64,000 nt of DNA from a bacterium UBP15_UBA6099 (GCA_002435745.1 DIWT01000004.1:19096-83095), one strand, 5' to 3'. Counted from the stretch's first letter, positions 8,129-51,582 are shown. Notes: generated from the letters alone by a model not told the origin. Numbers and translations: made by a program.

Positions 8129-8168
8129 TGGCACCTAATCTGAATCAGGCTTTTCATACCCAGCCGCG

Positions 8169-8750: not shown

Positions 8751-8931
8751 AATACTGGAGATTGGAGAGTATGACATAAATTGAATAGTGGGCGGCGCAT
8801 GGCTGATTTCACAATGGATTTAGTATCATTCGGAATAATTTAAAGACATTGACAAAGAATCGATTAATGTCTTAAATTTTAAGACAGAATAAATGTATGA
8901 AAAATGAAATATAATATAATGGGGGGCTAAA

Positions 8932-9078: not shown

Positions 9079-9189
9079 AATGGTTAGGGAGAACATCAAA
9101 CTGAAATCTTCTTGAAGGAGTGATATACTTTTTTCGAATTTAAATATGAAGGAAAAGAAGTAGCAAAACAGACAGTTAGAACAACTTTA

Positions 9190-10503
9190 TTGTTACATCA
9201 CTCTTATGCTGTTCCTCAAAATGTATCAGTTGTTAGAAAAGACGATGTTATTTTGGTAATTAATCCACAAACAGCTAATTGGCTGGTGCTAAACGATATT
9301 GAATTAGAAGTATATTTTTTGCTCGCAGAAGGAATAACAATAAAAAAGGTCATAGAGAAGATTTCTAAAAAAAGCAACTGTAATCAACATGCCTCTTCAA
9401 TTGTCAAAAGATTTCTTGCTCAATCGGAAGCTAAACAATTCAACAAAACTGTTGGGACTGTGTTCGCAGATTCATTTGGGATGTATGTTTTTCTAACATT
9501 TGACTGCAATCTGAAGTGTAGTCACTGTTTTCTATACGATAAACCACGACTCGGAGATCCTCTTGAAATTGAACAATGGAAAAGAATACTCATTGATTTT
9601 CAGCTTGCCGGAGGAGAAAAGATAACATTATCTGGAGGGGAACCGACACTTTTTGATTCCTTTGCAGATATCCTTGTTTTTGCACATGGCATTGGATTGA
9701 AAGTGACATTATTGACAAATGGCATGATTTTGCATTCGGAACTACTAGAATTATATTCTAACAATGTAGATGAACTCCAGATTAGCCTCGATGGACCGGA
9801 AGAGATTAGTCACGAGATGATAAGGGGAAAGGGAACTTACTTTAAGACATACTCAAACATAAAAAAAGCGTTAGACAAGGGCGTTATGGTTACTATTGCC
9901 ATGACGCCAACTTTTGAGACATTTCCATTTTTCGAAGAGCATTTTGTTCGATTTGCGAAATCTTTACTTAATGAATACTCAAATGTAAATGTTAAATTGA
10001 CACAAAAGCTTCTTCGATCAAAAATGTCGATTTATTCGGATACGGATATGAATAAATATTACGCAAAAGGAAATAGACTGATTAATAATCTTTATGAGGA
10101 TTATTCCATCAATGCGTTTTATTTAGACCACCCTGTGAATACAATACGACGCAATTGTGGTTATGGCGAGATATCAGTTATTCCAGACGGAACCGTGTAT
10201 TTATGTAGTAGGATTTGTGATTTGAAACCAGTTGCAAATTTAAAGGAATTAAAAATGGTAAACGTGATACAAATTGCACGAGAGGAGAAAGAGAGGGCTT
10301 CAGTGGAGAATATCATCCCATGTCAGCATTGTTGTTTAAGGTATATCTGTTCTGGTGGTTGCAGAATAGACGACATCCCTGATTTTTGTAATGGACAATT
10401 GACTGTAGATTGTCCTGAAGAAAGGAAGCAACAAATATTTGACATGATGATAGAATCAAACAATATGTATTTCAATATAGAGTATAAACCAAATAATGAA
10501 TGA
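9190..10503 (+). CDS. Radical SAM/SPASM peptide-maturase-like enzyme with a PqqD-like (RRE) N-terminal domain
   Basis: CxxxCxxC motif (FDCNLKCSHCF) and GGEPTL. C-terminal auxiliary-cluster cysteines are present (CGYGEISVIPDGTVYLC...PCQHCCLRYICSGGC). The N-terminal ~90 aa fit the PqqD/RRE pattern (VILVINPQTANWLVLNDIELEVYFLL..GITIKKVIEKI). The start is TTG; there is no in-frame ATG upstream. Confidence 0.8.
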   Translation: MLHHSYAVPQNVSVVRKDDVILVINPQTANWLVLNDIELEVYFLLAEGITIKKVIEKISKKSNCNQHASSIVKRFLAQSEAKQFNKTVGTVFADSFGMYVFLTFDCNLKCSHCFLYDKPRLGDPLEIEQWKRILIDFQLAGGEKITLSGGEPTLFDSFADILVFAHGIGLKVTLLTNGMILHSELLELYSNNVDELQISLDGPEEISHEMIRGKGTYFKTYSNIKKALDKGVMVTIAMTPTFETFPFFEEHFVRFAKSLLNEYSNVNVKLTQKLLRSKMSIYSDTDMNKYYAKGNRLINNLYEDYSINAFYLDHPVNTIRRNCGYGEISVIPDGTVYLCSRICDLKPVANLKELKMVNVIQIAREEKERASVENIIPCQHCCLRYICSGGCRIDDIPDFCNGQLTVDCPEERKQQIFDMMIESNNMYFNIEYKPNNE

Positions 10504-12898: not shown

Positions 12899-12899
12899 A

Positions 12900-13475
12900 T
12901 CATAGCGGTTTGTGCCAGTTTTTGTATATGCCGCCGTAAGCGCCGGTGTCGTAGAGGTGGGCGATGACGAGGGCGACGGCGTTTTTGAATCCGGCGTCGC
13001 CGGAGATTGCGAAAGCGAGCGGGCCTGTAGCAGCGGAATAGTAATAGACTACGGACGCATGGGCGTTGTTCGGGACGGATGGGGCGGATATGACCGCCGC
13101 CGGGTCGCCGGGGAGCACGATATTGATTTTTGCTCCGAGAGCTGACGCGATGAATTTTAGCAGGTCGGGTTCGAAGCCGCGCGCGACGCCGTATTCATCC
13201 CTGAAGCACATGGGAGGGCGTTCGCAGTCCACCGCCGCGGCGATGATGCCGGAAGCGCGAGCGGCGCGCAACGTCTCGGAGTCCCCTGCGGCCAGTTCGA
13301 CATCCGCTGCGAGAACGCTTTGCACGGGGTCTCTGGCGGTGGCGGCGGGAACGGTTTCCGAGGGGACGGCGGACGGATCTTGACCCCGGGGGCATCCGGA
13401 AATCAGGACGGCAACTGCCGCCATAACCGCCAGCGCCGACGCGCGTTTCAACCTGTTGTGTTTCGGTTCTATCAT
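12900..13475 (-). CDS. Lipoprotein with a short solute-binding-protein-like domain
   Basis: Signal peptide with lipobox (VLISGC). It resembles SBP_bac_3 (GFEPDLLKFIASALG), though the domain is short. Confidence 0.55.
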   Translation of the reverse strand: MIEPKHNRLKRASALAVMAAVAVLISGCPRGQDPSAVPSETVPAATARDPVQSVLAADVELAAGDSETLRAARASGIIAAAVDCERPPMCFRDEYGVARGFEPDLLKFIASALGAKINIVLPGDPAAVISAPSVPNNAHASVVYYYSAATGPLAFAISGDAGFKNAVALVIAHLYDTGAYGGIYKNWHKPL

Positions 13476-27206: not shown

Positions 27207-28175
27207 ATGGAATCCGAGCGCCGGGTTGGGTACAATATTCGGCGTATGCGCGAGCCTGTGTATGTCGAAACATATCGAAGCGGCCTGCTGAGAGAGCGGG
27301 TCGAGTCGGCGCGCGAGATTCTCAGGGAGTGCGCGCTGTGCCCGCGCGAATGCGGGGCGGATCGGCTTGCGGGCGAGACTGGGGTATGCCGCGCGGGGGC
27401 GGAGGCGCGCGTCGCAAGTTTTAATCTCCATCATGGCGAAGAGCCGCCCATCTCCGGCTCGAGAGGCAGCGGAACGATCTTTCTATCTCACTGCAATCTC
27501 AGATGCGTGTTCTGTCAGAACTATCCGATCAGCCACATGGGCAACGGGGTTCCAGCCCCGCCGCGCGAACTTGCGGACATGATGCTGAAGCTTCAGAAAC
27601 GCGGCGCGCACAACATTAACTTCGTCACGCCGACCCACTACATGCCGCAGATAATCGAGGCGTTGGAGATAGCCGTCGGGGACGGCCTGCGACTGCCCGT
27701 TGTTTACAACTGCGGCGGATACGAGTCGGTGGAAGCCGTGCGGATGCTGGAGGGGATAGTAGACGTGTATCTTCCGGATATAAAATACAGAAGCGCGGAG
27801 CCAGCCGAAGCGCTGTCGGGCGCGCCGGACTATTTCGAGCGTGCTTGCGCGGCAGTCAAGGAGATGTTCTCTCAGGTCGGCCTGCTGGAGACGGACGAAG
27901 AAGGCGTCGCCGTTCGCGGGCTGATAATCCGGCATCTTGTGTTGCCCGGCGGGCAGGCGGGCAGCAGGGAAGTATTTGAGTTCGTCGCTCGCGAGATTTC
28001 GCCGGATGTCAGCATGAGCGTAATGAGCCAGTATTTTCCGGCGCACGAGGCTCCGCTGAACTCGGCGGTGTCCCGGCGCGTGACGGTCGCCGAATATCAG
28101 GAAGCTCTGGACGCTCTGGAAGAAACAGGATTGACGAAGGGCTGGACGCAGAGCGATCCTGATTTGGAATACTAA
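27207..28175 (+). CDS. Radical SAM protein, PflX / pyruvate-formate-lyase-activase-related
   Basis: CNLRCVFCQN (CxxxCxxC). Length is 322 aa, with a conserved N-terminal Cys pair (CALCPRECG). Confidence 0.75.
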   Translation: MESERRVGYNIRRMREPVYVETYRSGLLRERVESAREILRECALCPRECGADRLAGETGVCRAGAEARVASFNLHHGEEPPISGSRGSGTIFLSHCNLRCVFCQNYPISHMGNGVPAPPRELADMMLKLQKRGAHNINFVTPTHYMPQIIEALEIAVGDGLRLPVVYNCGGYESVEAVRMLEGIVDVYLPDIKYRSAEPAEALSGAPDYFERACAAVKEMFSQVGLLETDEEGVAVRGLIIRHLVLPGGQAGSREVFEFVAREISPDVSMSVMSQYFPAHEAPLNSAVSRRVTVAEYQEALDALEETGLTKGWTQSDPDLEY

Positions 28176-37664: not shown

Positions 37665-37853
37665 GCCTTCCACTCCCGGGCGGCGAGAGCCGCCGCCGCG
37701 CAATTTTTAACCCGCATTCAAGCCGGAACCGACTCTCTCCGGTTCCGCAACATCAAAGTATTCTATTTGAATTCCATCCCTATATCAACAGGAGATTTAA
37801 ATTTTGCGCATAGCAAATAAAAAAGCGGTTTCCACTATTGCGGACGCATTCAA

Positions 37854-40355
37854 TTATATATCTCCGAAAGAAACGCGGTTGATGATGTCGTCTTGGAGCG
37901 GGCGGCCGAGGTCGGTGAAATAGGCGCTGTAGCCGCTGACGCGCACGAGAAGCCCTCTGTGCGAGTCAGGGTCGAGCTGAGCGGCGCGCAGGGTTTCGTC
38001 GTCCACGACGTTGAATTGGACGTGCATTCCGCCCAGCGAGAAGTACCCTCTCAGCATCGCCTCGAATTTCCGCCGGTTCTCTTCATTTTTAAATACGCCG
38101 GGCATCAGCTTCATGTTCAGGGAACTGCCGTTTGTTATTTTCGAGTGTTCTAAAGAAGCGACGGAGCGCATGACGGCGGTCGGTCCGAGAGATTCCGCGC
38201 CGTTCACGGGCGACAGGCTGTTCGAGACGGGTTGTCCGGCGAGGCGTCCGTCCGGAGTGGCGCCAAGAAGGGAGCCGTCCAGCACGTGCATCCCATAAGA
38301 GAAAAACCCCGGTCTGAACGCGCCGCCTTTGCGGATGGATTTGTGTTTTGCGACTTCTTCGCAGAACATGGCTGCGACCTCGCGGGCCATGGCGTCCGCT
38401 TCGGGGTTGTCGGAGCCGTAGCGCGGCGTTCGGCTCGACAGAAACGCTCTCATTTTCTCGCGGCCTCTGAAATTCGTTTTCAGCGCGGCGGAGAGTTCCT
38501 TCATAGTGTATTTTTTCTCGTCGAAAACGAATTTTTTAATCGCCGTCAGCGAATCGGCGACGGTTCCAAGGCCGCGCGCGCTGATGGAAGCGTAGTTGTA
38601 TTTCGCCCCGCCTTGAGTCATGTCTTCGGCGTTCCTTATGCAGCCTTCGAGGGTGGCGGATATGAATGGATTGTGGAACCCTGCGGCGTAAACTTCGTCT
38701 TTGGCGTTCACGCAGCGGGCGATGTGAGCGACGGTGAAGCTCAACTGCCGCCGAAACGCGTCTAGAAACTGCACGAAGGAGTTGAACTTCGCCGGGTCTC
38801 CCGTGCGCGGGCCGGCGCGGCGGCCCGCCATCCTTATTCTTCCCTGTGTGAAAACCATCTCAAGAACGCCCGCCAGCGAGATGTCGTTGCCGGAGGTGCA
38901 GCCGAAAGTGTTTCCCTGAGACGTCGGCTCCACGCACCCTATTATCGCGTAGTCCCTCGCGTCTTCCGTCGAGCAGCCCAGTTCTTCCAGCATCGGGATT
39001 ATGACATCGTCGTTGAACAGAGCGAGTCCCGACGTGGCCGCGTGGACTTCCGAAATCTTCGCGAGGAATTCCGGGGGCGTCTTAGAACTGACCCGGACGG
39101 AATATGAGTTGCTCATGCCTTCAATATTTTTTACCGCGTCGAGGAATAGGAGGGAGAGTTCGTTTGAGGCGTCCTCGCCGTCCGGGCCTGCGCCGCCGAA
39201 GGTGGGGGCCATGCTGTCCGCGCCCATTTCCGACCCGGAATTTTTTCCGAAAGAGGGCAGGGGAATGAGGTTGACGCTCAATTTGACGAGGAGTTCCTCG
39301 ACGAGTTCGAGCGCGCGGGTCTCGGAGATTGCGCCGGATTCGACATCTTTTTTGTAGAAGGGAAATAGTATTTGGTCTAGCCGTCCGACGGCGCAGATGC
39401 CCGCCAGACCGTAGCTGATTCCGCACATGACCTGAGCGAGCCACAAGGATTGGACGGCCTCGTGGAACGATTCGGGCGGCAGCCACGGCGCGCGGGATGT
39501 GTGCCGGGCGATAAGCCGCAGTTCTTCTCTACGCGCCGGGTCATTCTCGTTCTCCGCCATGCGCGCGGCCAAGTCGGAATATCTTTTTGCGAACATTCGC
39601 GCCGCGTCGCAACAGATTATCGTCGCTTCGAGGAATTTCCGGCCCTCTTCCGTTACGGGCTGTTCGAGTCTGCGCGCCGCCATGTCCCGCAGCCCCTTGA
39701 ACCCGCAACGCGCAACATTGTTGTGACCGATCACAAGATGTCCCTGAGTGTCGAACACGTTGTTCACCATGTTGGGATTGTTCACGGGAAGTTCCGCCGC
39801 CGAGCGGGGCAGAGCGCGCCAGCGCCCTTTTGCGAACACGGACAGGCTTTCCGCCAGCCGGGCCGCTCCGAAGCTTCTGACGAGATCGAACAGCGCGAAC
39901 GGCGTGAAACCCGGCTTGATGATAAGGCCGTCGCGCTCGAAGAGGCGGCGCTTGCCGTCCCGGACGGTCTTTCCTCTCCAATATGGCAGAATGTCGTTCA
40001 GCAACTCTTTTTTGTCGTCGGGGTCGATGCGGTACGGCCTGTCCGGGCGGTTCAGCAGGTTCTCAATGTCCATTTCGAGCACGAGGTTCATCTCCCCGCG
40101 TTCCACGGGAAGCAGCGTTCCGACAAGCGCGCTGTTGTGGTTGCCGGCTATAAGCTCCTCGTCGAGGATGAAAACGGTTTTCTTCCGGAGCGTGTTCTCA
40201 AACGCTTTCGCCGCGCGGATGGAAGGATGTTCCCCTTCCGTCCGGCGGTAGGACTCGGTAACATATCTTGCCCGCTCGACGCAGATAGCGTACTGTTCGT
40301 CGAGAATCCTTTTTCTCAGGCGCTGAGTCCGCGATTTCTCTTCAGCAACCGCCAT
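37854..40355 (-). CDS. Glycyl radical enzyme (PFL2/glycerol-dehydratase-type family), substrate unknown
   Basis: C-terminal glycine-radical motif VRVSGYSAYF (Gly808, codon 37932-37934). The active-site loop IIGCVEPT carries Cys and Glu two residues apart. Length is 833 aa. Confidence 0.9.
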   Translation of the reverse strand: MAVAEEKSRTQRLRKRILDEQYAICVERARYVTESYRRTEGEHPSIRAAKAFENTLRKKTVFILDEELIAGNHNSALVGTLLPVERGEMNLVLEMDIENLLNRPDRPYRIDPDDKKELLNDILPYWRGKTVRDGKRRLFERDGLIIKPGFTPFALFDLVRSFGAARLAESLSVFAKGRWRALPRSAAELPVNNPNMVNNVFDTQGHLVIGHNNVARCGFKGLRDMAARRLEQPVTEEGRKFLEATIICCDAARMFAKRYSDLAARMAENENDPARREELRLIARHTSRAPWLPPESFHEAVQSLWLAQVMCGISYGLAGICAVGRLDQILFPFYKKDVESGAISETRALELVEELLVKLSVNLIPLPSFGKNSGSEMGADSMAPTFGGAGPDGEDASNELSLLFLDAVKNIEGMSNSYSVRVSSKTPPEFLAKISEVHAATSGLALFNDDVIIPMLEELGCSTEDARDYAIIGCVEPTSQGNTFGCTSGNDISLAGVLEMVFTQGRIRMAGRRAGPRTGDPAKFNSFVQFLDAFRRQLSFTVAHIARCVNAKDEVYAAGFHNPFISATLEGCIRNAEDMTQGGAKYNYASISARGLGTVADSLTAIKKFVFDEKKYTMKELSAALKTNFRGREKMRAFLSSRTPRYGSDNPEADAMAREVAAMFCEEVAKHKSIRKGGAFRPGFFSYGMHVLDGSLLGATPDGRLAGQPVSNSLSPVNGAESLGPTAVMRSVASLEHSKITNGSSLNMKLMPGVFKNEENRRKFEAMLRGYFSLGGMHVQFNVVDDETLRAAQLDPDSHRGLLVRVSGYSAYFTDLGRPLQDDIINRVSFGDI

Positions 40356-40371
40356 GGCTATGCTCCCTTTG

Positions 40372-41958
40372 TCAACATCCCTTTTCGGGGTATCCGGTTA
40401 TCTGCTGCATTTCTCTAAAAATGGGAAGTAATTGCTTGTAAATTTTAGTGTAAACCCGGTCATAGAGGGCGGCATAGAGGGCGACGTTTTCCGGCACAGG
40501 CTCGAAGATGTCGCCGGGGCGGGTCATTGCGGCTACGGCGTCGTCGAAGCTTTTGAAAAAACCGAGGCCGACTGCGGCGACGATGGCGGCTCCGAGAGCT
40601 GAAGTCTCGTGAGTGTGAGGTCTCTGCGCGGGCATCCCGAAGACGTCCGCGCATATCTGCATGGCCGAAGAGCTTTGAGAGCCGCCGCCGGACACGCGCA
40701 ACCCCGTTATTGGAATTTTATTCTTCTTCTCGGTCAGTTGCGCGCCTTCTTTCAGCGCGAACACAAGCCCTTCGAGTATGGCGCGGTAAAGGTGGGCGCG
40801 TTTGTGGAAGTCGCAGAACCCGATGACGGAGCCGCGCGCGCATCGGGCCTTGTCCGGAGCCGGCGTCCAGTACGGCTGGAGCGTCAATCCCATCGACCCC
40901 GGCGGGATGTCCTTTATCAGAGCGTCGAGAAGTTGCTCGGGGGATACCCCTTTGTCGCTCGCTTCGAGGCGCTCCTGAAGCCCGAACTCCTCTTTGAACC
41001 ATGTTATCATCCATGCGCCGCGCAGCACGGCCACTTCGGTATAGTATCGTCCCGGGACCGCCGAAGGATACGGCGGCCAGAAAGGTTTTAATTCCACATA
41101 CCTGTCGTTCATCGTGTTGATGGTGGAAATGGTTCCGAAACTTATGCAGGCGTTTTCAGGGGACACGCAACCGGCGCCGAGAATTTCGCACGCTTTGTCG
41201 TTTGCCGCGGCGATTACCGGAAGTCCTGCGGGGATCCCGGTTTCTTCAGCCGCTTTCCGCGAGATATGGCCCAGCAACCCGGTCGGCGCGATCAGATCGG
41301 GCAGTTTTTCAAGCTCGATCGGGAACAACCTGTGCTTCGGATCGAACCGTCCTGCCCACCGGCCTTTTTTGATGCTGAACGGCACATAGCCGACTATGCT
41401 GCCGCTTGAATCCACGAACTCGCCTGTCAGCTTGAGCGCGAACCATCCTGACAGGTATATGTGTTTATGGACGCGCTTCCAGATTTCCGGCTGATTCTGG
41501 CGAATCCAGTTCGATTCGCAATCGCGGATCGCGCCCTCTATGAGCTCTTCGTATTTAACCGCTTTCAGCAACGGACGGAAGACTGAAGGGATGATGTTGC
41601 CGGAGTCGGATTTGCGCTCGTCCAGCCAGACGATTGCCGGACGGAGCGGAACTCCGTTCTTATCGACGTCGATAAGCGTGTTCCGTTGAGTGGCAACCGC
41701 GACGCCTTTGATCGCTTCTTTCGATTCAATGTTCCTTTCGAGAAGCTTTTCGCAAGAGCGGCACAACATTTCCCAGAAATATTCCGGCCGTTGTTCCGCC
41801 CACCCCGGTTGCGGAGAGCAACAAAGCTCGATGGGCGTCTTCACCATGTCGCGGATATTGCCGTCGAAGTCAATCAGCGCGGCCCGTATCGATTGCGTTC
41901 CCGCGTCGATTGCGAGCGCCAGTTCCGTTTTTCCAATCCCTTTTCCAGCCATGACCAC
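40372..41958 (-). CDS. FGGY-family carbohydrate kinase, copy 1
   Basis: FGGY N- and C-terminal domains (LAIDAGTQSIRAAL, GLRVSGGGSQSSSAMQICADVFG). Length is 528 aa. Confidence 0.85.
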   Translation of the reverse strand: MVMAGKGIGKTELALAIDAGTQSIRAALIDFDGNIRDMVKTPIELCCSPQPGWAEQRPEYFWEMLCRSCEKLLERNIESKEAIKGVAVATQRNTLIDVDKNGVPLRPAIVWLDERKSDSGNIIPSVFRPLLKAVKYEELIEGAIRDCESNWIRQNQPEIWKRVHKHIYLSGWFALKLTGEFVDSSGSIVGYVPFSIKKGRWAGRFDPKHRLFPIELEKLPDLIAPTGLLGHISRKAAEETGIPAGLPVIAAANDKACEILGAGCVSPENACISFGTISTINTMNDRYVELKPFWPPYPSAVPGRYYTEVAVLRGAWMITWFKEEFGLQERLEASDKGVSPEQLLDALIKDIPPGSMGLTLQPYWTPAPDKARCARGSVIGFCDFHKRAHLYRAILEGLVFALKEGAQLTEKKNKIPITGLRVSGGGSQSSSAMQICADVFGMPAQRPHTHETSALGAAIVAAVGLGFFKSFDDAVAAMTRPGDIFEPVPENVALYAALYDRVYTKIYKQLLPIFREMQQITGYPEKGC

Positions 41959-41990
41959 GCCTTTTAGGAATGACCGCGCATCCTGCCGGG

Positions 41991-43694
41991 TCAGGTTCCG
42001 CTCTTGCCTTTCAGCGCGAGTTGCCCGCCGGGGTTCATTATGTTGTTCGGGTCGAAATGCGTTTTAAGAGCGCGGAGCGCGTCCATCTGCGTTTTTCCCA
42101 GATGCTCTTCCATCCAAGGAGACAGCAGTTTTCCGACTCCGTGATGGTGGCTCAACGAGCCTCCGTTTTCAACAATTGCGCTAACGATTTTGCTGTGAAC
42201 TTCGTTGTATTCTTCCGGTCTTTCCGGTTTCAGCACGAAAATGAAATACAGGTTGGTTCCATTCGGATAGAAATGAGACGCGTGGGTCATGCAGATTGAG
42301 CCGGGCCTGCTTTTCACGACAGCCCGAACCTCTTTGTGAAGCCGCAGCAGGTTGTCCCATGTCACGGCTGATTCCAGCGTGTCCGTCACTATGCCGAAGT
42401 CCAGAAAATCCTCCCGCATCAGCGGCTCCTTGTAGCGGGTTTTCTCCCACGCCTTCACAACCACCGCCGGAAGCTTCATCGCTCCGTTCGCGCGACACAC
42501 TTTTCCTATGCTTTTCTTCACATGTTTCGCGTATCCCTTCTCTCCCTCCACCGTTCCCATGCACACGCACCTGCTCATCGGCTTCATTACCCGAGCCGAC
42601 ATGAACTTTTCGAAATATGCGTTGTCGAACCCGTACAATTTCAGCCCCCTGTCGGTTTCCTCAGGGTCGGAAATTCTGTAAACCGCAGGCAACCCGAACT
42701 CGGACTGCATGATCTCTCTCGAAGCGTTGACAGCCGACTCCCACGATGGGAACATGAAAGCGAAATACTGCCTGTTTTCCGGCATGAAGCGGAATATTTT
42801 CATCGTGATTTCCACAAGCGCTCCGAAAGCGCCCTCGCTGCCTTTCATGATGTCGTTCAGTTTCGGGCCTGTGGCGGTCGCGGGATATTCCAGCGTTTTG
42901 AAAGTCCCCGCCGGGGTGACGTATTCCTGCGAGATCGCTAGGTGGTAGGCGTCTCCATAATACGTGGAAGCCTGCCCGGATCCGAGCGCGGCTATCCAGC
43001 CGCCGACGGACGACATCTCGAACGATTGAGGAAAATGCCCGCATGTGTATCTTCGGGCGGTCTTGAACATCTGAGGCGCGTTGTTCAGCGCCGCCTCGAA
43101 ATCAGGCCCCATCATGCCCGGTTGAACCGTCGCCGTCTGGTTCGCCTCGTTGATGTTAAGCAGCTTGTTCATGTGGGTCTTCATAACAAGCGTCACGCCG
43201 CCCTTTTCCGGCGCGATTCCCATTACCACGGAGGATCCTCCGCCATAGACGCAAATCGGTATTCTATGCTTATCGCAGTATTCGACAATGCGGCGGACGT
43301 CGTTCTTGTCTCTAGGATGAACCACCGCATCGGCGACATTCCGGGGCCTGTTCATGCGCAGATCCATCACTTCTTTCATCGTCTGCCCGTGGCTGTATTT
43401 TACGCGGTCGTAGTCGTCAGCCGACACGTTTTCAGAGCCGACAATTGCTTTAAGCGCGTTTATATGCTCGTCGTTTAAACCCGGTTTTCCGCCCAACGAG
43501 ACCTTCTCGTTTCCTTCGTTCTGTTTACGAGAAAAATATTCTTCCGTGACGCCGAATTCGGACATCATCATCTCCACAAGCTCGGCGCGAGGATGCTTGA
43601 ACTCGTTCGGCTCGCCGAACTTAAAAATGGAACGGTACGATCCCGGTTCGGGAGCCCGCTCCGTCCAATCCGGCGTGAATTTTTTTCCAGACAT
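41991..43694 (-). CDS. FAD-linked oxidase (GlcD / alkylglycerone-phosphate-synthase-like)
   Basis: FAD_binding_4 pattern (RIPICVYGGGSSVV) and C-terminal HHHGVG. The long N-terminal extension resembles AGPS-like enzymes. Length is 567 aa. Confidence 0.8.
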   Translation of the reverse strand: MSGKKFTPDWTERAPEPGSYRSIFKFGEPNEFKHPRAELVEMMMSEFGVTEEYFSRKQNEGNEKVSLGGKPGLNDEHINALKAIVGSENVSADDYDRVKYSHGQTMKEVMDLRMNRPRNVADAVVHPRDKNDVRRIVEYCDKHRIPICVYGGGSSVVMGIAPEKGGVTLVMKTHMNKLLNINEANQTATVQPGMMGPDFEAALNNAPQMFKTARRYTCGHFPQSFEMSSVGGWIAALGSGQASTYYGDAYHLAISQEYVTPAGTFKTLEYPATATGPKLNDIMKGSEGAFGALVEITMKIFRFMPENRQYFAFMFPSWESAVNASREIMQSEFGLPAVYRISDPEETDRGLKLYGFDNAYFEKFMSARVMKPMSRCVCMGTVEGEKGYAKHVKKSIGKVCRANGAMKLPAVVVKAWEKTRYKEPLMREDFLDFGIVTDTLESAVTWDNLLRLHKEVRAVVKSRPGSICMTHASHFYPNGTNLYFIFVLKPERPEEYNEVHSKIVSAIVENGGSLSHHHGVGKLLSPWMEEHLGKTQMDALRALKTHFDPNNIMNPGGQLALKGKSGT

Positions 43695-43756
43695 ATTGTC
43701 CTCCCATTTTTATCGCGCGTTTTCTGTCTTGTGTCCGTCGCCATCAACCCGCGGGC

Positions 43757-45403
43757 TTACCGCGGGATCTCGAACATTTTTTTCGCGTCCGCGACTTCCT
43801 TCGATTTGCGCGAATCGTCCCAGCAGAGTTCCTTCGCCGCCACATCCGCCACGGCGTCGACGACCGCGTCGCCCGGATCCCCCATCGTGCCAAGTCCCGT
43901 CCTGCGGAATAGGATGTCCTTCAGCGTCAGCGCCATTTCCTCCCGGATCGCGTAAACAGCCTGCGCGGCGATTTCGCCATCCGCGTTCAATGGCGTCGCA
44001 AGAGCGTTGTTCTGACGTCCTATGCTCAGCAATTTGTCGATTTCCGTTCCATAGTATTTTCCTAGACATTCAATCGTTTCATTCTTGAAATCCGCGTTGG
44101 CCGTTTTCTTCTCAGCGAGAAAAGCGTTCATATCTTTTATTTCGCATCCGGCTAGATACTGTTTGTCCGTGACGCATTTCGTTTCCTTCAAATTTAATTT
44201 CCGCGAGACCATTTTCATCACGTTTTGCGCAAGGTTGCGGCTTGTCGTATATTTGCCGCCCTCGACGGTGATCAACCCGGAAAGGCTGTCATTAGCGTTG
44301 TCGTATATCTCGTACCGCCGGGACGACTCCCGAACGGATTTCTTTTTATCTTCAAGAAGAGGGCGCAGACCGCCGTAAGCGCGCTCCACATCATCGTAGC
44401 CGATCCGCTCCTCTCCGCGCATCGCGTCGTTCGCCATTCCGATTAATTCCATTATCGCTTCTCGCGTCACCATGTAGTCGTCGGGGTTTCCCTCGTAATC
44501 CTTGTCGGTGGGGCCAATCAACGTTCTTCCTCTCCACGGGGTCATCACGAACCCGCCGCCGGAGGAAGTCACCATCGCCAACATCCCATTCAGGACGGGC
44601 TTCTTCGTTATTATGTGAATTCCTTCCGATCTCCTGATGCGACGCGATCCGCTTTCGCCTCTCGCCGCGTCCAGTATCAGGTCCGCCCAAGGCCCGCCGC
44701 AGTTGATCGTCAACTTGCTCCTCAATTCCACGTTTCTTCCGGTTGTCAGGTCTTTTACGTTCACGCCCGCGATCCGTTTTCCGTCTCCGGCTGCGGAATA
44801 AATAAATCCTTCGACTTTGCTGTAATTGGAAACGCGCGCTCCGCTTTTAACCGCCGACTTCACGAACGCCAAGGTCAGCCGCTCCGGAAAAATGCTCGCG
44901 CAGTCGTAATAAGAAAAAGCTCCTTTGAATCCGTTCCGCGGAATCGACGGTTCCATCTCCAGCGCTTTCGCCGCCGGAACCGCCTTATGGAAACCTATGC
45001 TTTTGCTCTTGTCCCAAGTGCGCCCTTTGTCGAAAGAAAGAGAATCGTACAGCATCATCCCCAGCCTTATCGCCCATGTGTGTTTAGTTATTCCCTGCTT
45101 GTAGCACGGGACCATCACCCGAATAGGATAGACTAGGTTCGGAGCGATGTTCTCCAGAGTCCGACGTTCTTTCAGAGATTCCCGCACTATGCCGAACTCA
45201 AGGTTGGCAAGATATCTGAATCCGCCGTGGATCAGCTTTGAAGTGGCTGCGGAAGTGGCGCATCCGAAATCGTTTTTCTCCAAAAGAGCCACAGACAGTC
45301 CTCTCGATGCCGCGTCATAAGCCACCGCCGCTCCGGTGATTCCTCCGCCTATCACCGCAACGTCGAACTCTCCTGTGTTTGGGTCTTCAATGAACCTTTT
45401 CAT
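43757..45403 (-). CDS. FAD-dependent glycerol-3-phosphate-dehydrogenase-like oxidoreductase
   Basis: N-terminal dinucleotide fold DVAVIGGGITGAAVAYDAASRG. It has a GlpD/GlpA-like length (548 aa) and a C-terminal domain. Confidence 0.8.
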   Translation of the reverse strand: MKRFIEDPNTGEFDVAVIGGGITGAAVAYDAASRGLSVALLEKNDFGCATSAATSKLIHGGFRYLANLEFGIVRESLKERRTLENIAPNLVYPIRVMVPCYKQGITKHTWAIRLGMMLYDSLSFDKGRTWDKSKSIGFHKAVPAAKALEMEPSIPRNGFKGAFSYYDCASIFPERLTLAFVKSAVKSGARVSNYSKVEGFIYSAAGDGKRIAGVNVKDLTTGRNVELRSKLTINCGGPWADLILDAARGESGSRRIRRSEGIHIITKKPVLNGMLAMVTSSGGGFVMTPWRGRTLIGPTDKDYEGNPDDYMVTREAIMELIGMANDAMRGEERIGYDDVERAYGGLRPLLEDKKKSVRESSRRYEIYDNANDSLSGLITVEGGKYTTSRNLAQNVMKMVSRKLNLKETKCVTDKQYLAGCEIKDMNAFLAEKKTANADFKNETIECLGKYYGTEIDKLLSIGRQNNALATPLNADGEIAAQAVYAIREEMALTLKDILFRRTGLGTMGDPGDAVVDAVADVAAKELCWDDSRKSKEVADAKKMFEIPR

Positions 45404-45424
45404 GCGCTTCGCCTCAATTCGCGA

Positions 45425-46201
45425 TTATTCCGCTTGAATATTCGCGATCGTTTTGAATAGTTCCTGCTCGGCGCGTATATACATAGCCAGAGCTTTCTGT
45501 CGGGCTTGTTCGAAGTCCTTATTCTTTATCGCGTCGAACATTTCGCGATGATAGACTTCCGTATTTCGCGCGTTCTTCTCGACGTCGTAATACAGGTAGG
45601 CGTAATCCCTCAACAGCCCGGTGAACGCGTTGAGCAGGATGACGAAAAAGGCGTTTCCGCCGGCTCTCGCGATGATGTTGTGAAATCGCCAATCCTTTTC
45701 CGCCATAGGCATTTCGCCGCTTTCGAAGACTATTTTTTCGAGGGCTTGCAGGTCTTTCTCCGATCTGTTCCGCGCGGCGAGGCTTGCCATTTCAGGCATA
45801 AGGATTATTCTCAGTTCGGAGAGATTTCTTAATATGCCGACATCCGGAGTTCCGTCCCTGATCAACAACTGTTTTGCCAGTTCCAAGCTTCCGCTTTCGA
45901 GATAATCCCTGACGTAAACGCCGTCTCCATGCCTGATTTCCACAAGTTCCATGCTTTCTAATTTGTTAAGCGCCTCGCGCAATGTGGAACGGTTCACGTT
46001 CATAGCATCAGCAAGCTCGCGCTCGGGAGGAAGCTTGGCTCCGGCGGGAATCTGTCTGGAAATAATCTTGTTCTTGAGTTGTTCGGCGATTCCCTCGTGA
46101 AGTCTGACGCGTTGAGGCGGAACGAAGAGAGAGGAGTTATTATCGCGAGTCATGATGAGACATCCCCGGCGGGCGTTTAATTGGTACGGTGGCCCGACCA
46201 A
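45425..46201 (-). CDS. GntR/FadR-family transcriptional regulator
   Basis: GntR HTH (LPPERELADAMNVNRSTLREALNKLE) plus an FCD-like C-terminal domain. An alternative start is the ATG at 46153. Confidence 0.85.
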   Translation of the reverse strand: MVGPPYQLNARRGCLIMTRDNNSSLFVPPQRVRLHEGIAEQLKNKIISRQIPAGAKLPPERELADAMNVNRSTLREALNKLESMELVEIRHGDGVYVRDYLESGSLELAKQLLIRDGTPDVGILRNLSELRIILMPEMASLAARNRSEKDLQALEKIVFESGEMPMAEKDWRFHNIIARAGGNAFFVILLNAFTGLLRDYAYLYYDVEKNARNTEVYHREMFDAIKNKDFEQARQKALAMYIRAEQELFKTIANIQAE

Positions 46202-46329
46202 TTAATCATGCGCTTTTTCTGCGGCCTTGTCAACTTTTTTAATTTGTATATTCCCGTAGGGGCGCAAAAGCGCAAGAAAGGTATCTAGCAAGACGAGTTC
46301 TTCAAGAGCATCTCGCTCTAGTTTAATCC

Positions 46330-47910
46330 TCATCCGCCTTCTTCGGGGTATCCGGTTATCTGTTGCATTTCTTTGAAAATGGGAAGCAATTGTTTGTAGA
46401 TTTTCGTGTAAACACGGTCGTAGAGGGCGGAGTACAGGGAGACGTTTTCCGGCACAGGCTCGAAGATGTCGCCGGGGCGGGTCATGGCGGCTACGGCGTC
46501 GTCGAAGCCGTTGAAAAAGCCGAGACCGACTGCGGCGTCGATGGCGGCTCCGAGAGCTGAAGTCTCGTGAGTGTGGGGTCTCTGCGCAGGCATCCCGAAC
46601 ACGTCCGCGCATATCTGCATGGCCGAAGAGCTTTGAGAGCCGCCGCCGGACACTCGCAGCCCCGTTATTGGGATTTTGTTTTTTTTCTCCGTGAGTTGAG
46701 CGCCTTCTTTCAGCGCGAACACAAGCCCTTCGAGTATGGCGCGGTAAAGGTGGGCGCGTTTGTGGAAGTCGCAGAACCCGATGACGGAGCCGCGCGCGCT
46801 TCGGTCTTTGTCGGGGGTTGGCGTCCAGTACGGCTGGAGCGTCAGCCCCATCGACCCCGGCGGGATGTCCTTTATCAGAACGTCTAGGAGTTGCTCAGGA
46901 GCGACGCCTTTTTCGCTTGCTTCGAGGCGCTCCTGAAGCCCGAACTCTTCTTTGAACCACGTTATCATCCACGCGCCGCGCTGCACCGCCACTTCGGTGT
47001 AAAAGCGTCCGGGGACTGCGGACGGATACGGAGGCCACAGAGGCTTCAACTCCACATATTTATCGTTCATCGTGTTTATTGTTGATATGGTTCCGAAGCT
47101 GACGCAGGCGTTTTCGGGGGACACGCAACCCGCGCCGAGAATCTCGCAAGCCTTGTCATTAGCCGCCGCGATGACCGGAAGCCCGGCGGGAATGCCTGTT
47201 TCTTCAGCCGCTTTCCTCGTGATATGGCCCAACAGGCCCGTCGGCTTCACGAGGGTCGGGAGTTTTTCTCGCTCGATGGGGAACAGCAGAGATTTCGGGT
47301 CGAACTTTCCGGCCCACTCGCCTTTTTTAGCGCTGAACGGCGTGTAACCGACGATGCTGCCGCTTGAGTCCGAGAACTCGCCTGTCAGCTTGAGATTGAA
47401 CCATCCTGACAGGTAGATGTGTTTGTGGACGCGCGCCCAGATTTCCGGCTGATTCTGTCGGATCCAGTTCGATTCGCAGTCCCGGACGGCTCCGTCTATG
47501 AGAGTGTGGAGGCCGAGCATTTTGAGAGGGAGGCGGAGCGCGGCAGGGAGCGCGCCTCGGGAGTCCGCCTTGCGCTCGTCGAGCCAGACTATTGCCGGGC
47601 GGAGCGGCGCGCCGTTCATGTCCACGTCTATCACTGTGTTGCGTTGCGTCGTCACCGCCACGCCCCGGATGGCGTCCTTGCTCTCTGATGTTTTCGCGAA
47701 CAGCCCGGCGCACGCGGTCCGCAGAATGTCCCAGAAGTATTCCGGGTCCTGCTCGGCCCAACCGGGCTGCGGCGAATGGCACAGGCGCATCGGCGTCTTG
47801 ACGATGTCCCTGATTTCGCCGTCGAGATCGATTAGAGCCGCCCTTATCGACTGTGTCCCGGCGTCTATCGACAGTATGAGATCGGATTTGCTCTTTTCGC
47901 TCTTTCCCAT
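46330..47910 (-). CDS. FGGY-family carbohydrate kinase, copy 2 (paralogue of 40372-41958)
   Basis: Colinear with copy 1. My manual alignment finds about 20 differences in the last ~300 residues. The N-terminal third is much more divergent. Confidence 0.85.
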   Translation of the reverse strand: MGKSEKSKSDLILSIDAGTQSIRAALIDLDGEIRDIVKTPMRLCHSPQPGWAEQDPEYFWDILRTACAGLFAKTSESKDAIRGVAVTTQRNTVIDVDMNGAPLRPAIVWLDERKADSRGALPAALRLPLKMLGLHTLIDGAVRDCESNWIRQNQPEIWARVHKHIYLSGWFNLKLTGEFSDSSGSIVGYTPFSAKKGEWAGKFDPKSLLFPIEREKLPTLVKPTGLLGHITRKAAEETGIPAGLPVIAAANDKACEILGAGCVSPENACVSFGTISTINTMNDKYVELKPLWPPYPSAVPGRFYTEVAVQRGAWMITWFKEEFGLQERLEASEKGVAPEQLLDVLIKDIPPGSMGLTLQPYWTPTPDKDRSARGSVIGFCDFHKRAHLYRAILEGLVFALKEGAQLTEKKNKIPITGLRVSGGGSQSSSAMQICADVFGMPAQRPHTHETSALGAAIDAAVGLGFFNGFDDAVAAMTRPGDIFEPVPENVSLYSALYDRVYTKIYKQLLPIFKEMQQITGYPEEGG

Positions 47911-47943: not shown

Positions 47944-49077
47944 TTATTTTGAGACGGTGTATGACGAGGCGGCGAGCCGCGCGCGGGTCAGCCCTGTTAT
48001 GTCAACGAAACTGTAGTGGTCCAACTGCTTGTTCCTCAACACGCCGGTGTGGGCGAAGACGATAAACTCGGTCAACGGCTGTTTCCCCGGCCACAGTTTT
48101 CTTTTAACTTTAAATAGAGCGTGGGAATCTCTGATTTCGCAGACCACTGAAGAAACGTCCTCCGTCGGAATGCCGTCCCGGTTGATTATGACCGCGCACG
48201 GCTGAGCGATCCCCGAAACCGAATAGCCGAGGGGCAGCAGCCGGACGAGAGCGCCGTCGAGCGGCAGTCCCTGTTCGGGGTCGGGCGCGGAGGACGCTGG
48301 GTTCATCACAGTAACCGCGTACTGGTTGAGCGCGATGGGGGTCAGGCTTCCGGTCGAGATTTCACCTTGCACCGTGATGTCGAAATAAAGCCAGTTGGAG
48401 TCGTATCCCATGCGGAAGTCGAGGATGTCGAAGTCCTCGCCCGCTCTTGAAGGCGGGTCGTCCACCGGCGTCTCTTCTTCGCCAAGAGCGAACATGCAGC
48501 CTCTGGGCCGCCTGTTTTCGAGGCATTCGGCGAAGGGCCGCTTGGCAAACTCGTCGCAGTCCTGTTTGAAGTAGGCGGCGGAGGGCGGCCACGAGGACTG
48601 AGCGCACGCAAGGTCAGCCAGAGTTCCGCTCTTTTCATTCCGCGCCCGGAATGCGGTTAAGACTTTCGCGCCCGCGGACCTGCCGGGAAGGGACGCTAAC
48701 ATCCGCCCGCGTTCTTTCGCCGGGGCCAGTTCCGAAACGTCCCAAGTTTTGCCGCCGTTGGCGCTGTGAAAAACGCTCGCGGAATCCATCTTGAGCGGGA
48801 CGGCGGACACGTGGGCGAATGTCGCGCCGAGGATGGCGGGTTTCTTGGGAGCGGGCGGAGACGGGTCGAACTCAGGCGTCGTGGCGGAGGGCAGGGGGAT
48901 GTCTTTTAAAAACAATATGTGCCTGTGTTTCAACTGGGAGGGGATGAGAACGACCGCGTCTGGGTCAAAGTCGCCGGCAGCCGGGGGCGTCTGCGCGGTC
49001 AGGGGCGCGCATATAATAACGGACAGAATGAAGGAGGCTATCGCCACTGTCGATTTTTGGCGTTTTTTTTCAGGCAT
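47944..49077 (-). CDS. Secreted hypothetical protein (377 aa)
   Basis: N-terminal signal peptide (VAIASFILSVIICAPLTAQ). This is the only long ORF with non-shadow composition here. No motif recognised. Confidence 0.6.
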   Translation of the reverse strand: MPEKKRQKSTVAIASFILSVIICAPLTAQTPPAAGDFDPDAVVLIPSQLKHRHILFLKDIPLPSATTPEFDPSPPAPKKPAILGATFAHVSAVPLKMDSASVFHSANGGKTWDVSELAPAKERGRMLASLPGRSAGAKVLTAFRARNEKSGTLADLACAQSSWPPSAAYFKQDCDEFAKRPFAECLENRRPRGCMFALGEEETPVDDPPSRAGEDFDILDFRMGYDSNWLYFDITVQGEISTGSLTPIALNQYAVTVMNPASSAPDPEQGLPLDGALVRLLPLGYSVSGIAQPCAVIINRDGIPTEDVSSVVCEIRDSHALFKVKRKLWPGKQPLTEFIVFAHTGVLRNKQLDHYSFVDITGLTRARLAASSYTVSK

Positions 49078-49122: not shown

Positions 49123-50556
49123 TCACAACAAGGATTTTCCATCAACGCCGGGCGTTTCAAACCCCATGATTTTGCCGATTGTCGGAACGATGTCCACGAT
49201 GCTCGCGCCGCGGACGGTGGAGTCCGGAATGCCGGGGCCTGAGACCGCGAACGGGACCGCGGAGTCCAATATATGAAGCCCGCCGTGCTCGCCCGCTTTC
49301 GGTTTGTCCCCGAAGTAATAACCTTTTCGGCAATCGAGAAGAACCATCATGTCGCCGCAACGGGAGCAGTTCACGCCTTTTAGTCGGCGGACTGCGTCGG
49401 GATACTCAGATTCCTTGCCGGAGAAGAAGTTTTCGAGGGAAACGAGGGAGCCGCCGGAGAATACTTCGTAGTCCGCGCCGAAGCCGCGTCTTACGAGAAC
49501 GATGTCGACGAATGGCATCTGACCATTTTTTAATTTCTCGAAAGCGGCGGCGGCGGGGAGCGTGTCGCGCTCGAAGTCCGGCTCGTCCGCCCAGCGCCCT
49601 GTTTGCCTGTTCTTAAGGTGAACCTGAGCCGTGAACGCCTCCGTGCATATCACCGCGGTGTCCGCGTCGCGCACCGTTTTTTTGTCGAACAGATCGAACC
49701 CGCCGCCGGGAACGCCCTTCATAACTTCCGCCAGCATTTCGTTGGTTGCGATGTGGGTCTTCTCTCGCACGGTCTTGGCTTGGCAGTGATCCGCCGCCAG
49801 CAGAAAATGGAATTCTTCGAGCGGCCGGTTTTTTTCAAGCTCGGCGATGAACAGCCCGAAAAGCGGATCCACGATTGAGCGGTAGTAGTCGTTCTGAGTG
49901 TCCGGGCCGTGTTCGTGGCTGCTGTTGTCGTGGCCGGAGATGTAGAACACCGTCAGGTCGGGCAGCGGGTTCTTCCGCATGTCCCGGAAGAGGTGTTTGA
50001 ACGTCGCCTTGTCCCAATGTTTGTTATGGACAAGCTCTTCGTGGCAGAGCGCGAAAAGAATCATCTCCGGCCGGGTCGGCTTAATCCATTTGCCAACGCC
50101 CCGGCTTATCTGATTGAACACCTGCCATGAATCCAGCCCGGCGGCGGCGGCGAACTGGTAAACTGTTTTGATGTCGGCGGCCATGTCGTTGTTCGCGTAT
50201 TGGAGCTGGGGCCGTTGCGGCAGGATTATTGTGGGCCAGCCGACAAGGCCGAACCCGTAGACCCCGGCGGCGGTGGCCGCCGTAGTGTACCTCCGGTACA
50301 TCAGCGGGTCGCTGTGGCGGTCAAACCAACTGTTGCCTATGATGCCGTGCCTGCCGGGGAACACGCCCGTGAACATCGAGGGCTGGCAGGAGAGGGTGAC
50401 GGCGGGGAAGACGGCGGACGCTGTTTCCGCCCTCAGCCCGGTCCCGGCTATCCGGGACGTGTTGGTCGTCTTGTCGTCGAGCGCCGCGTACAGCACATCG
50501 GGATGAATCCCGTCGATGTCTATCATTATTAATTGTTTGCGCGAGTTGTCTGTCAT
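49123..50556 (-). CDS. Alkaline-phosphatase-superfamily protein (nucleotide pyrophosphatase/phosphodiesterase-like)
   Basis: MIDIDGIHPDVL near the N-terminus, then GHDNSSHEHGP and GEHGG, as in type I phosphodiesterase/AlkP-core metal sites. Confidence 0.7.
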   Translation of the reverse strand: MTDNSRKQLIMIDIDGIHPDVLYAALDDKTTNTSRIAGTGLRAETASAVFPAVTLSCQPSMFTGVFPGRHGIIGNSWFDRHSDPLMYRRYTTAATAAGVYGFGLVGWPTIILPQRPQLQYANNDMAADIKTVYQFAAAAGLDSWQVFNQISRGVGKWIKPTRPEMILFALCHEELVHNKHWDKATFKHLFRDMRKNPLPDLTVFYISGHDNSSHEHGPDTQNDYYRSIVDPLFGLFIAELEKNRPLEEFHFLLAADHCQAKTVREKTHIATNEMLAEVMKGVPGGGFDLFDKKTVRDADTAVICTEAFTAQVHLKNRQTGRWADEPDFERDTLPAAAAFEKLKNGQMPFVDIVLVRRGFGADYEVFSGGSLVSLENFFSGKESEYPDAVRRLKGVNCSRCGDMMVLLDCRKGYYFGDKPKAGEHGGLHILDSAVPFAVSGPGIPDSTVRGASIVDIVPTIGKIMGFETPGVDGKSLL

Positions 50557-50596: not shown

Positions 50597-51166
50597 TTAG
50601 AACCCTCGTTTTATGGATGAATCAGGCATCGAACGCCTGACGGAATCCTCGGCGTTCTCTCCTGCGTTAGCCGGATGCAGGTCCCAGTATGCGACGGCTC
50701 CGCCTTTAAGATTGAATACGTAGTTGAAGCCCGCTTTCCTCATTCTGGCCGCCGGTTCAACGCTCTCGTCTCCCTTTTCAGACACCACGATGTAATCCGC
50801 GTTCGGGTCCATGTCGGAAAGAGCCTCGTCAAGCTCGTCGTCGGGAATGTTTATCGAGTCCGGGATGAGCGGCGCGCCGCTCCAGATATCATCCGGGTCC
50901 CTGATGTCGATGATCACCGCGCCTCTGGAGACCATGCCTTCCACTTCTTCGGCGCGCACTGAATACACCGCGCGACCGACGACCTCTTTAGGCTTCCTGT
51001 CGTCCGCGTCATCTTTGTAATCGCCGGAATCGCGCTCGGACTCCGAATTGGCGGAAGCTGGAGCCTGTGGTTTCGCGCCTCTGCTGCAACCCGGCGCGAA
51101 CGCCCCGGCGGTCAGAAGCAATGCCAACGCCAAAGCCGGCAATGCCATGCGCTTCTTTGTGTTCAT
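50597..51166 (-). CDS. Rhodanese-domain lipoprotein
   Basis: I trimmed the ORF to the ATG at 51166, which follows GGAGGTGGCCG. It has a lipobox (AFAPGC) and a C-terminal rhodanese-like block (AVIIDIRDPDDIW...IPD..L...YIVVSEKGDES...AGF.NVFNLKGG). Confidence 0.7.
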   Translation of the reverse strand: MNTKKRMALPALALALLLTAGAFAPGCSRGAKPQAPASANSESERDSGDYKDDADDRKPKEVVGRAVYSVRAEEVEGMVSRGAVIIDIRDPDDIWSGAPLIPDSINIPDDELDEALSDMDPNADYIVVSEKGDESVEPAARMRKAGFNYVFNLKGGAVAYWDLHPANAGENAEDSVRRSMPDSSIKRGF

Positions 51167-51582
51167 CGGCCACCTCCGGTTATTGACACATTGTAACTGT
51201 GCGGGGCCAAACAAGCAAAGGGGCGGAGACGGGAACCGAGCGAAAAAAGTCGACACTGAAGGCAATCTCGGACCGCACCAGCGCGTCGCGGGCAACCAAG
51301 CAATTATTCGACATAACAAAACAGACATAATCGGCGCGGTCGGCGCGCATGGTTTTTCATGCGGGCGCAACAAATGTTGCAGTCGGAGCGATGGGCGCGC
51401 AAACGCTAAATAACGCAACATAAAATATGTTTCTACAAATATCGGTTAAATCAAGGCGCTTTTTAGGATAGAAACCGCGCCCGGCGGAAGAGCCGATTTG
51501 TGGGCTGAAATCACTTTTGGTAAAAAATGTTGCAAATTGTCGGATGCTATATTAGATTAAAATACTATAGATAGAGAGGCTC

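Follow-up and report, generated by a model that had tools for sequence, protein, structure and literature searches.

We analysed a 64,000-nucleotide stretch of DNA from the bacterium UBP15_UBA6099 (GCA_002435745.1, DIWT01000004.1:19096-83095; hereafter, the window), focusing on a gene for a glycyl radical enzyme (GRE) and the genes that precede it on the minus strand. An earlier interpretation made from the sequence alone (the sequence-only reading) had described five minus-strand genes, encoding a GntR regulator, a GlpD-like flavoprotein, a second FAD-dependent flavoprotein, an FGGY kinase, and an 833-aa GRE, and had taken them for a single anaerobic polyol or polyol-phosphate pathway. The five open reading frames (ORFs) were confirmed at 37854-46201 with intergenic gaps of 21, 62, 32, and 16 nt, in agreement with the coordinates, strand, and 16-62 nt spacing given there. 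Our analysis indicates that these genes probably form two separable units, a conserved four-gene cassette and a stand-alone GRE of an uncharacterised clade, which are neighbours only in the lineage of the window.

The same-strand string comprises nine genes (Table 1). It extends upstream of GntR with gaps of 33-128 nt, and this continuation, including a second FGGY kinase, had been missed in the sequence-only reading. Other gene callers place the GntR start at about 46153, which gives a protein of 242 aa. The best NCBIfam model for the GlpD-like protein was glycerol-3-phosphate dehydrogenase (PRK12266), at 311 bits and below the cut-off of 360. FGGY copy 1 reached 257 of the 380 bits that the XylB model demands and was therefore assigned no equivalog. 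The 377-aa protein gave no Pfam match even at E 0.1 and, among the compared loci, was found in the window's lineage alone. Downstream of the GRE gene lie secD and then secF, as identified with Pfam and NCBIfam. Because only 16 nt separate them, the GRE gene and the FGGY gene that precedes it are probably co-transcribed. Across 42-46 kb, the GC content falls to 0.51-0.55 and the GC skew flips sign.

Table 1 Genes and sequence features of the GRE locus, in order of transcription, and the PflX-type gene of the window.
Feature	Position	Strand	Basis or remark
Rhodanese-domain protein, first gene of the nine-gene string	50597-51421	-	Pfam
Type I phosphodiesterase / alkaline-phosphatase-superfamily protein	49123-50556	-	Pfam
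377-aa secreted protein, N-terminal signal sequence apparent by eye	47944-49077	-	Translation
FGGY kinase copy 2, paralog of copy 1, just upstream of GntR	46330-47910	-	Pfam; alignment
Promoter-like site, TTGACA, 17 nt spacer, CATGAT	46205-46233	-	Upstream of GntR ATG; consensus match only
GntR + FCD regulator	45425-46201	-	Pfam domains
GlpD-like FAD dehydrogenase, DAO + DAO_C	43757-45403	-	Pfam domains
AGPS-family flavoprotein, 567 aa, FAD_binding_4 (PF01565) + FAD-oxidase_C (PF02913)	41991-43694	-	Pfam
FGGY kinase copy 1, cassette type, FGGY_N + FGGY_C	40372-41958	-	Pfam; ends 16 nt before GRE start
GRE, PFL-like + Gly_radical, PFL2 type, 833 aa	37854-40355	-	Pfam; translation
Short weak hairpin + T-run, terminator-like	37824-37836	-	18 nt past GRE stop codon; consensus match only
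Promoter-like site between GRE hairpin and secD	37788-37760	-	Consensus match only
PflX-type radical SAM protein	27207-28175	+	56-67% identical to JGI 'putative pyruvate formate lyase activating enzyme'

Both domains of the GRE superfamily, PF02901 (E 4e-160) and PF01228 (E 3e-29), are present in the GRE. The motifs that had been described for it were seen in the translation, IIGCVEP with C474 and E476, and RVSGYSAYF with the radical glycine G808; GCVEP and RVSGYSAYF were invariant in 33 aligned members of the clade described below. The Cys loop reads C474-V475-E476. A Cys-x-Glu on this loop defines the eliminase and isomerase classes of GREs (PMC13450708), which is consistent with the earlier placement of the enzyme in the 1,2-eliminase branch. 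An AlphaFold2 model (pLDDT 89.4, pTM 0.91) matched solved GREs in a Foldseek search at TMq 0.85-0.88, a range shared by all eliminases, so the structure search cannot separate them.

The closest solved relatives by sequence and fold (phmmer, Foldseek) were the B12-independent glycerol dehydratase of Clostridium butyricum (1r8w) and the 1,2-propanediol dehydratase of Roseburia inulinivorans (5i2a/5i2g, 9rco), with phmmer E values of 1e-136 and 2e-129 and TMq of 0.86-0.87. They have in common with the GRE the ten-stranded barrel, the Gly loop, the Cys-x-Glu Cys loop, and the counterpart of His164. Unlike in these systems, no activase, 1,3-propanediol dehydrogenase, or microcompartment gene lies beside the window GRE. 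Identity to glycerol dehydratase was 37% over 621 aa, the maximum to any characterised GRE. The characterised eliminases and isomerases all scored the GRE about alike, and every NCBIfam equivalog cut-off was missed widely: 591 bits were obtained against the 678 of TIGR01774 (glycerol dehydratase), and 530, 523, 512, 455, and 460 bits with the HpsG, HpfG, HypD, CutC, and PflD models, whose cut-offs are 1000-1109. The enzyme is thus uncharacterised, as the sequence-only reading had held.

We compared the substrate pocket with that of glycerol dehydratase by residue alignment, taking residue roles from a 2026 review of GREs (PMC13450708). This check, which had been proposed earlier, gave a divided result, as the catalytic residues are kept and the diol-binding residues are replaced. 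Cys433, Glu435, and the proton donor His164 of glycerol dehydratase correspond to C474, E476, and H206. Elsewhere in the pocket H281/S282 becomes A318/G319, Y339/Q340 becomes A379/D380, D447 becomes S488, Y640 becomes F685, and Q636 becomes R681. Thus, the diol-binding set H281, S282, Y339, D447, and Y640 is replaced entirely, and only the His164 counterpart is retained. E376, D380, T487, N490, D491, and R681 are invariant or nearly so across the clade, and G683 occupies the place of Arg672, the sulfonate anchor of HpsG. Because the pocket differs from those of the glycerol and propanediol dehydratases, the substrate is probably neither glycerol nor propanediol and is probably larger and polar.

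A mechanism can be proposed from these residues. An activase encoded elsewhere in the genome would install the glycyl radical at G808, which would generate a thiyl radical at C474. The thiyl radical would abstract a hydrogen atom from the carbinol carbon of the substrate, E476 would deprotonate the carbinol hydroxyl, and H206 would protonate the vicinal leaving group, most likely a hydroxyl. The outcome would be a 1,2-elimination or an isomerisation. On the best reading, the GRE would be an uncharacterised radical 1,2-eliminase that is activated in trans and lies beside an unrelated cassette.

The relatives of the GRE were collected by scanning GTDB with a profile, each species being represented by one genome; this gave 80 loci, or 77 after subtraction of three from the window's lineage. 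A homolog search returned hundreds of proteins 50-67% identical to the GRE, all unnamed or generically named. Members of the clade are 45-67% identical and range from bacteria through Asgard archaea, their hosts being Asgard archaea, Desulfobacterota, Myxococcota, Planctomycetota, Hydrogenedentota, and others. In a library clustered at 50% identity, the clade was represented by one full-length sequence (1169 bits); the next match, 46% identical, scored 796 bits, and identity to the remaining PFL2 superfamily was about 40%. The signature VFDxQGH, GCVEP(T/S)xxG(N/D)TFGCTSGND(I/V/L)S, FRP(G/S)FFSYG, and RVSGY was present in nearly all 80 loci with occasional substitutions, and it is common to the bacterial and the Asgard loci. 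These features argue for a discrete, coherent, and uncharacterised clade.

No conserved neighbour of the GRE was found outside the lineage in the 77 loci when ORFs within 8 kb and four genes on each side were clustered all against all. Over the roughly 80 loci this clustering returned only lineage-internal clusters and scattered response regulators. A Pfam census of 132 immediate neighbours yielded 187 families, none of them more than six times (Radical_SAM 6, Response_reg 5, OsmC 4). As both analyses were flat, a conserved partner for the GRE was rejected. Of the 55 loci outside the lineage that extend 1.7 kb or more upstream of the clade GRE, none contains an FGGY kinase, and no kinase of any family was enriched beside clade GREs in the Pfam census. 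The nearest relatives outside the lineage (63-67% identical) lie beside DUF2804/TrkA-type genes, between paralogous secreted proteins, or by a GH38 mannosidase. Clade GREs normally stand alone, with neither conserved neighbours nor an adjacent activase, and the FGGY-GRE linkage is lineage-specific and uninformative on the substrate of the clade.

Some individual neighbourhoods are recorded here. A GntR/FCD regulator lies upstream of a clade GRE, on the same strand, in four loci from Desulfatibacillum, Desulfobacterales, and Thermodesulfobacteriota (L029 7410-8189, L030 222-965, L031 3611-4399, and L079 8429-9145). These regulators are 24-26% identical to the GntR of the window, and the one in L030 directly adjoins the GRE; no other neighbour was found to recur, even weakly, outside the window's lineage. 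In L086 (5337-6185 and 8818-9672), and likewise in L008, paralogs of about 283 aa flank the GRE homolog on both sides; their N-termini are hydrophobic and signal-like, and they match no family. A DUF2804 gene (L085 8816-9835) lies directly upstream of a GRE homolog 67% identical to that of the window. In Pseudomonas aeruginosa, the DUF2804 gene PA3342 is co-regulated with a trio of FAD-oxidoreductase, GlpD, and FGGY genes (PMC8151288). A DUF2804 link was treated as coincidence, as no other GRE locus contains the gene and neither does any of the 83 cassette loci described below.

The remaining four genes have a different distribution. The best PDB match of the flavoprotein at 41991-43694 was the alkyl-dihydroxyacetone phosphate (DHAP) synthase 2uuu with 249 bits (180 bits for a second AGPS, 4bby), and D-lactate dehydrogenase scored 94 bits. 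Two motifs, SHHHGVG, containing the HHH loop (H516-H518), and HxSHxYxxGxxLYF, line up with their counterparts in both solved AGPS proteins and show no variation among 25 homologs; the window protein reads HASHFY at the HxSHxY motif. The HHH loop and the Tyr motif have a catalytic role in AGPS. These matches mark the flavoprotein as a true AGPS-family enzyme. Unlike the solved AGPS, it is bacterial, is encoded alongside a kinase and a GlpD-like protein in a cassette, and has 70 N-terminal residues that do not align. The AGPS motifs point to DHAP-ester or -ether (glycerolipid) chemistry over the generic polyol catabolism that had been proposed for these genes.

Metagenomes of anaerobes contain a very large number of homologs of the flavoprotein (63-77% identical). 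The window order of GntR, GlpD-like, flavoprotein, and FGGY genes is repeated without a GRE in two loci (L090 and L091), whose proteins are 45-66% identical to those of the window. The GlpD-like protein is 54-65% identical to its cassette partners in L089-L091, and the GntR protein is 61% identical to the cassette GntR of L091. Both FGGY copies are about equally like cassette kinases elsewhere (56-71% identity). A metagenome scan with a flavoprotein profile, together with the earlier loci, gave a set of 83 loci, many of them on truncated contigs. Sequence clustering placed a GlpD-like gene beside the flavoprotein gene in 43 of the 83, an FGGY gene in 41, and a GntR gene in 28. A GRE of the window's clade occurred in none of the 83, among which 14 have the flavoprotein and then the FGGY gene on the same strand with at least 2.6 kb of sequence downstream. 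The cassette is therefore a self-contained, widely conserved four-gene module that is separable from the GRE. It would act on a glycerol-derived compound or a DHAP-ester or -ether (glycerolipid-type) compound.

The only GREs within 10 kb of a cassette were two of other families, 39% (L089) and 32% (L093) identical to the window GRE. They lie at L089 1-1301 and L093 14665-17031, 1.5-6 kb from the AGPS cassette on metagenome contigs, and no activase adjoins either of them in the available sequence. They were rejected as cassette partners because they belong to other families and one lies behind an rmlD-like gene on the opposite strand. By a rough estimate that was not computed, two GREs in about 1000 genes is about what chance would give.

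Close relatives of the window differ in the presence of the cassette. The five-gene order of the window is repeated in L005, where the GRE is 94% identical. In L006 (bacterium ADurb.Bin236, GRE 93% identical), the order is rhodanese, phosphodiesterase, 377-aa protein, a single FGGY, GRE, and secD; GntR, GlpD, and flavoprotein genes are missing, and the FGGY-GRE gap is 16 nt, as in the window. Consecutive accessions show this short form in two metagenome-assembled genomes (MAGs; OQA89664-67 and HOY61794-96) and the long form in another (HOC93146-53). The five-gene order was seen only where the GRE is at least about 94% identical. FGGY copies 1 and 2 are 85% identical overall. At the DNA level their 5' halves are 55-70% identical and their 3' thirds 85-96%, a gradient that suggests gene conversion or a recombination tract. 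In its 5' two thirds, the single kinase of L006 is like copy 2; its 3' third is ambiguous, and its downstream flank is like that of copy 1. The cassette is thus a presence/absence difference of about 5.95 kb among close relatives, bounded by the FGGY paralogs.

Three further systems invite comparison. In P. aeruginosa, PA3026-PA3024 form a GliR-activated operon, for which the authors propose a route from glycerol to alkylglycerone phosphate (PMC8151288). It shares with the cassette the trio of FAD-binding oxidoreductase, GlpD-like protein, and FGGY kinase, matched here by enzyme type and not by sequence identity. It differs in having an AraC-type activator where the cassette has GntR/FCD, in its gene order, and in lacking a GRE. 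The uncharacterised archaeal PFL2-type GRE of Archaeoglobus fulgidus (PFL2/PflD, 2f3o), whose function is disputed, matches the window GRE at TMt 0.93 and 31% identity. It belongs to another clade, scoring 397 bits against 930-1290 bits inside the window's clade, and it serves in the 2026 review as an example of unannotated GRE clades (PMC13450708). The 1,5-anhydrohexitol-6-phosphate isomerases YbiW and PflD have the Cys-x-Glu loop in common with the window GRE and provide a precedent for a GRE acting on a phosphorylated carbohydrate (PMC13450708). The GRE nevertheless scored 460 bits against the PRK09983 cut-off of 1109, and its PDB scores in this group (347-390 bits) were no better than with other eliminases; its kinase link, moreover, is confined to one lineage. 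Literature searches returned no match for glycyl radical enzyme with FGGY and dehydratase, nor for PflX with radical SAM.

No canonical GRE activase was found in the 64 kb window with two probes, E. coli PflA and the L058 activase, a genuine activase that adjoins a clade GRE. Domain calls and these probes confirmed that no activase flanks the GRE and that secD is the next gene. Because the window has no canonical activase, any activation must be in trans, as had been proposed. The sequence-only reading had treated this as a departure from the rule that activases are usually encoded next to their GREs. The absence at the window locus is borne out; the rule does not hold for this clade, as only three (L055, L058, and L076) of the 68 loci in which 1 kb or more of downstream sequence is available encode a canonical activase, of 310 aa and carrying a ferredoxin insert, directly after the GRE. 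These three GRE-activase pairs sit among housekeeping genes. More than 90% of clade loci lack a co-encoded canonical activase, so the missing neighbour is a rule of the clade and not a peculiarity of the window locus.

The earlier suggestion of the PflX-type protein as a partner bears on the same point. Its gene exists at the position that had been described, and the window contains no other activase-like radical SAM gene. A role as the dedicated trans activase of the GRE is very unlikely. Its cluster motif, GSGTIFLSHCNLRCVFCQN, is activase-like, its JGI family name is that of an activating enzyme (Table 1), and its synteny with the GRE at about 9-10 kb is retained in L006. Its match to the clade-linked L058 activase is marginal, at E 0.012 over 49 aa around the cluster motif. 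The CxxxCxxC motif sits at residue 95, not near the N-terminus, and the protein was not picked up by the PflA probe. A PDB search gave no relative at E ≤ 1, and none of the NCBIfam activase models matched; the sole NCBIfam match was to NrdG2, with 24 bits where 131 are required. In the other 77 clade loci, the sequence up to 10 kb from the GRE contained no homolog of the protein. The family is huge, with at least 8000 matches, and is spread far past the GRE clade, reaching even Patescibacteria as well as many other groups; the activases that do adjoin clade GREs are of the canonical 310-aa type. In the material retrieved, no member of the PflX-type family has a demonstrated GRE partner. By these comparisons the protein falls outside the activases and appears unlinked to the GRE clade.

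Several explanations of the five-gene arrangement itself can be weighed against two separable units. If the genes were one GntR-controlled anaerobic pathway for a polyol or polyol phosphate, the kinase and the flavoproteins would make or consume the GRE substrate. The single strand and the 16-62 nt gaps favour this, as do the promoter-like site before GntR, the terminator-like hairpin after the GRE, the same five-gene order in L005 and the HOC MAG, and the existence of sugar-phosphate GREs. We consider it unlikely, because the arrangement is confined to GREs at least about 94% identical and sisters at or above about 93% have no GntR, GlpD, or flavoprotein gene at the locus. Moreover, the cassette recurs without the GRE (no clade GRE in 83 cassette loci), the clade GRE recurs without the cassette or a kinase (none upstream in 55 clade loci), and the AGPS motifs indicate acyl/alkyl-DHAP chemistry, not that of a free polyol. 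The sequence-only reading had itself named a lack of conserved synteny as counting against its pathway; recurrence of the five-gene order was checked, and the order was not conserved. A narrower alternative confines the partnership to the kinase and the GRE in this lineage, the FGGY enzyme phosphorylating a polyol or sugar and the GRE eliminating from the phosphate ester, as compared with YbiW and PflD. All genomes of the lineage, whether long or short in form, have the FGGY gene 16 nt ahead of the GRE gene, and R681, invariant in the clade, replaces a glycerol dehydratase Gln. This adjacency is automatic, however, if the short form arose by FGGY-FGGY recombination, both FGGY copies are cassette-like and not GRE-specific, and no kinase family is enriched near the clade elsewhere. 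The pocket gains the invariant acidic residues E376, D380, and D491, not a cationic phosphate cradle, and the position of the sulfonate lyase Arg672 anchor is Gly683 here. A kinase-GRE partnership is accordingly improbable.

That the GRE is a pyruvate formate-lyase (PFL; formate C-acetyltransferase) or a benzyl- or alkylsuccinate synthase (Bss, Ass) is hardly credible, even though its relatives carry such database names ('formate C-acetyltransferase', 'Benzylsuccinate synthase alpha subunit', and 'pyruvate formate lyase family protein'). One paper on Asgard archaea takes pflD-annotated genes as pyruvate formate-lyase, and another takes PFL-like GREs as Ass/Bss. Genomes of Freyarchaeia and Atabeyarchaeia do carry clade members, but these are not matched gene for gene to the Asgard pflD paper. 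PFL requires two adjacent cysteines (PMC13450708); the GRE loop is G473-C474-V475-E476, and because it is of the Cys-x-Glu type, the PFL assignment is excluded. The TIGR01255 score was likewise 114 bits against a cut-off of 994. The X-succinate synthases were the lowest of the PFL-like matches at about 250 bits, with TM-scores of 0.80-0.83 and 25% identity, and the neighbour analyses found no conserved small-subunit gene beside the GRE. A bolder proposal is that the GRE performs a reaction new to GREs with a non-canonical activase, for example of the PflX type, or was recruited to the AGPS cassette for the anaerobic breakdown of glyceryl ethers or glycerolipids. We regard this as a long shot.

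The view that a conserved cassette and a stand-alone GRE became neighbours only in this lineage remains the probable one, and the following points weigh against it. The mechanistic steps are drawn from conserved residues only, together with the established eliminase mechanism. GREs that act on phosphorylated sugars do exist, namely YbiW and PflD (PMC13450708). Genes in the comparison loci were called with a crude ORF picker and many of the contigs are short, and the linkage of the GRE to the cassette and to activases was judged from local loci. The 16-nt FGGY-GRE spacing is the same in the long and short forms. Finally, the informative sites fit a deletion by FGGY x FGGY recombination and an insertion/duplication equally.

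Other features of the window are noted as side observations. Three tandem flagellin genes, each encoding 275 aa, lie at 2946-3773, 3986-4813, and 5030-5857. A low-GC island at 8000-12900 (GC 0.35, against about 0.57 around it) contains genes for a 437-aa radical SAM/Fer4_12 protein (9190-10503) and an SNF2-family helicase (10496-12898), and a T5orf172 + ResIII protein is encoded after it at 15914-18484. The 8000-12900 region is possibly an island of the mobile or defence type. Between relA/spoT and a thioredoxin gene is a gene for a ParE toxin, preceded by a small ORF (L001 20343-20809; about 29.5-30 kb in the window).

Because the juxtaposition is specific to the lineage, the neighbours should not guide guesses at the GRE substrate. 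The GntR/GlpD-like/AGPS-like/FGGY set is an equally widespread module without a known function. The more interesting object is the clade, which is widespread and almost never found beside an activase. According to the 2026 review, whole GRE clades, especially those with archaeal members, are still without experimental validation (PMC13450708). The present clade is large, tightly conserved across domains, and routinely mis-annotated, and it has no studied member. Metabolic models that assign formate production or hydrocarbon activation to this clade would need to be revisited.

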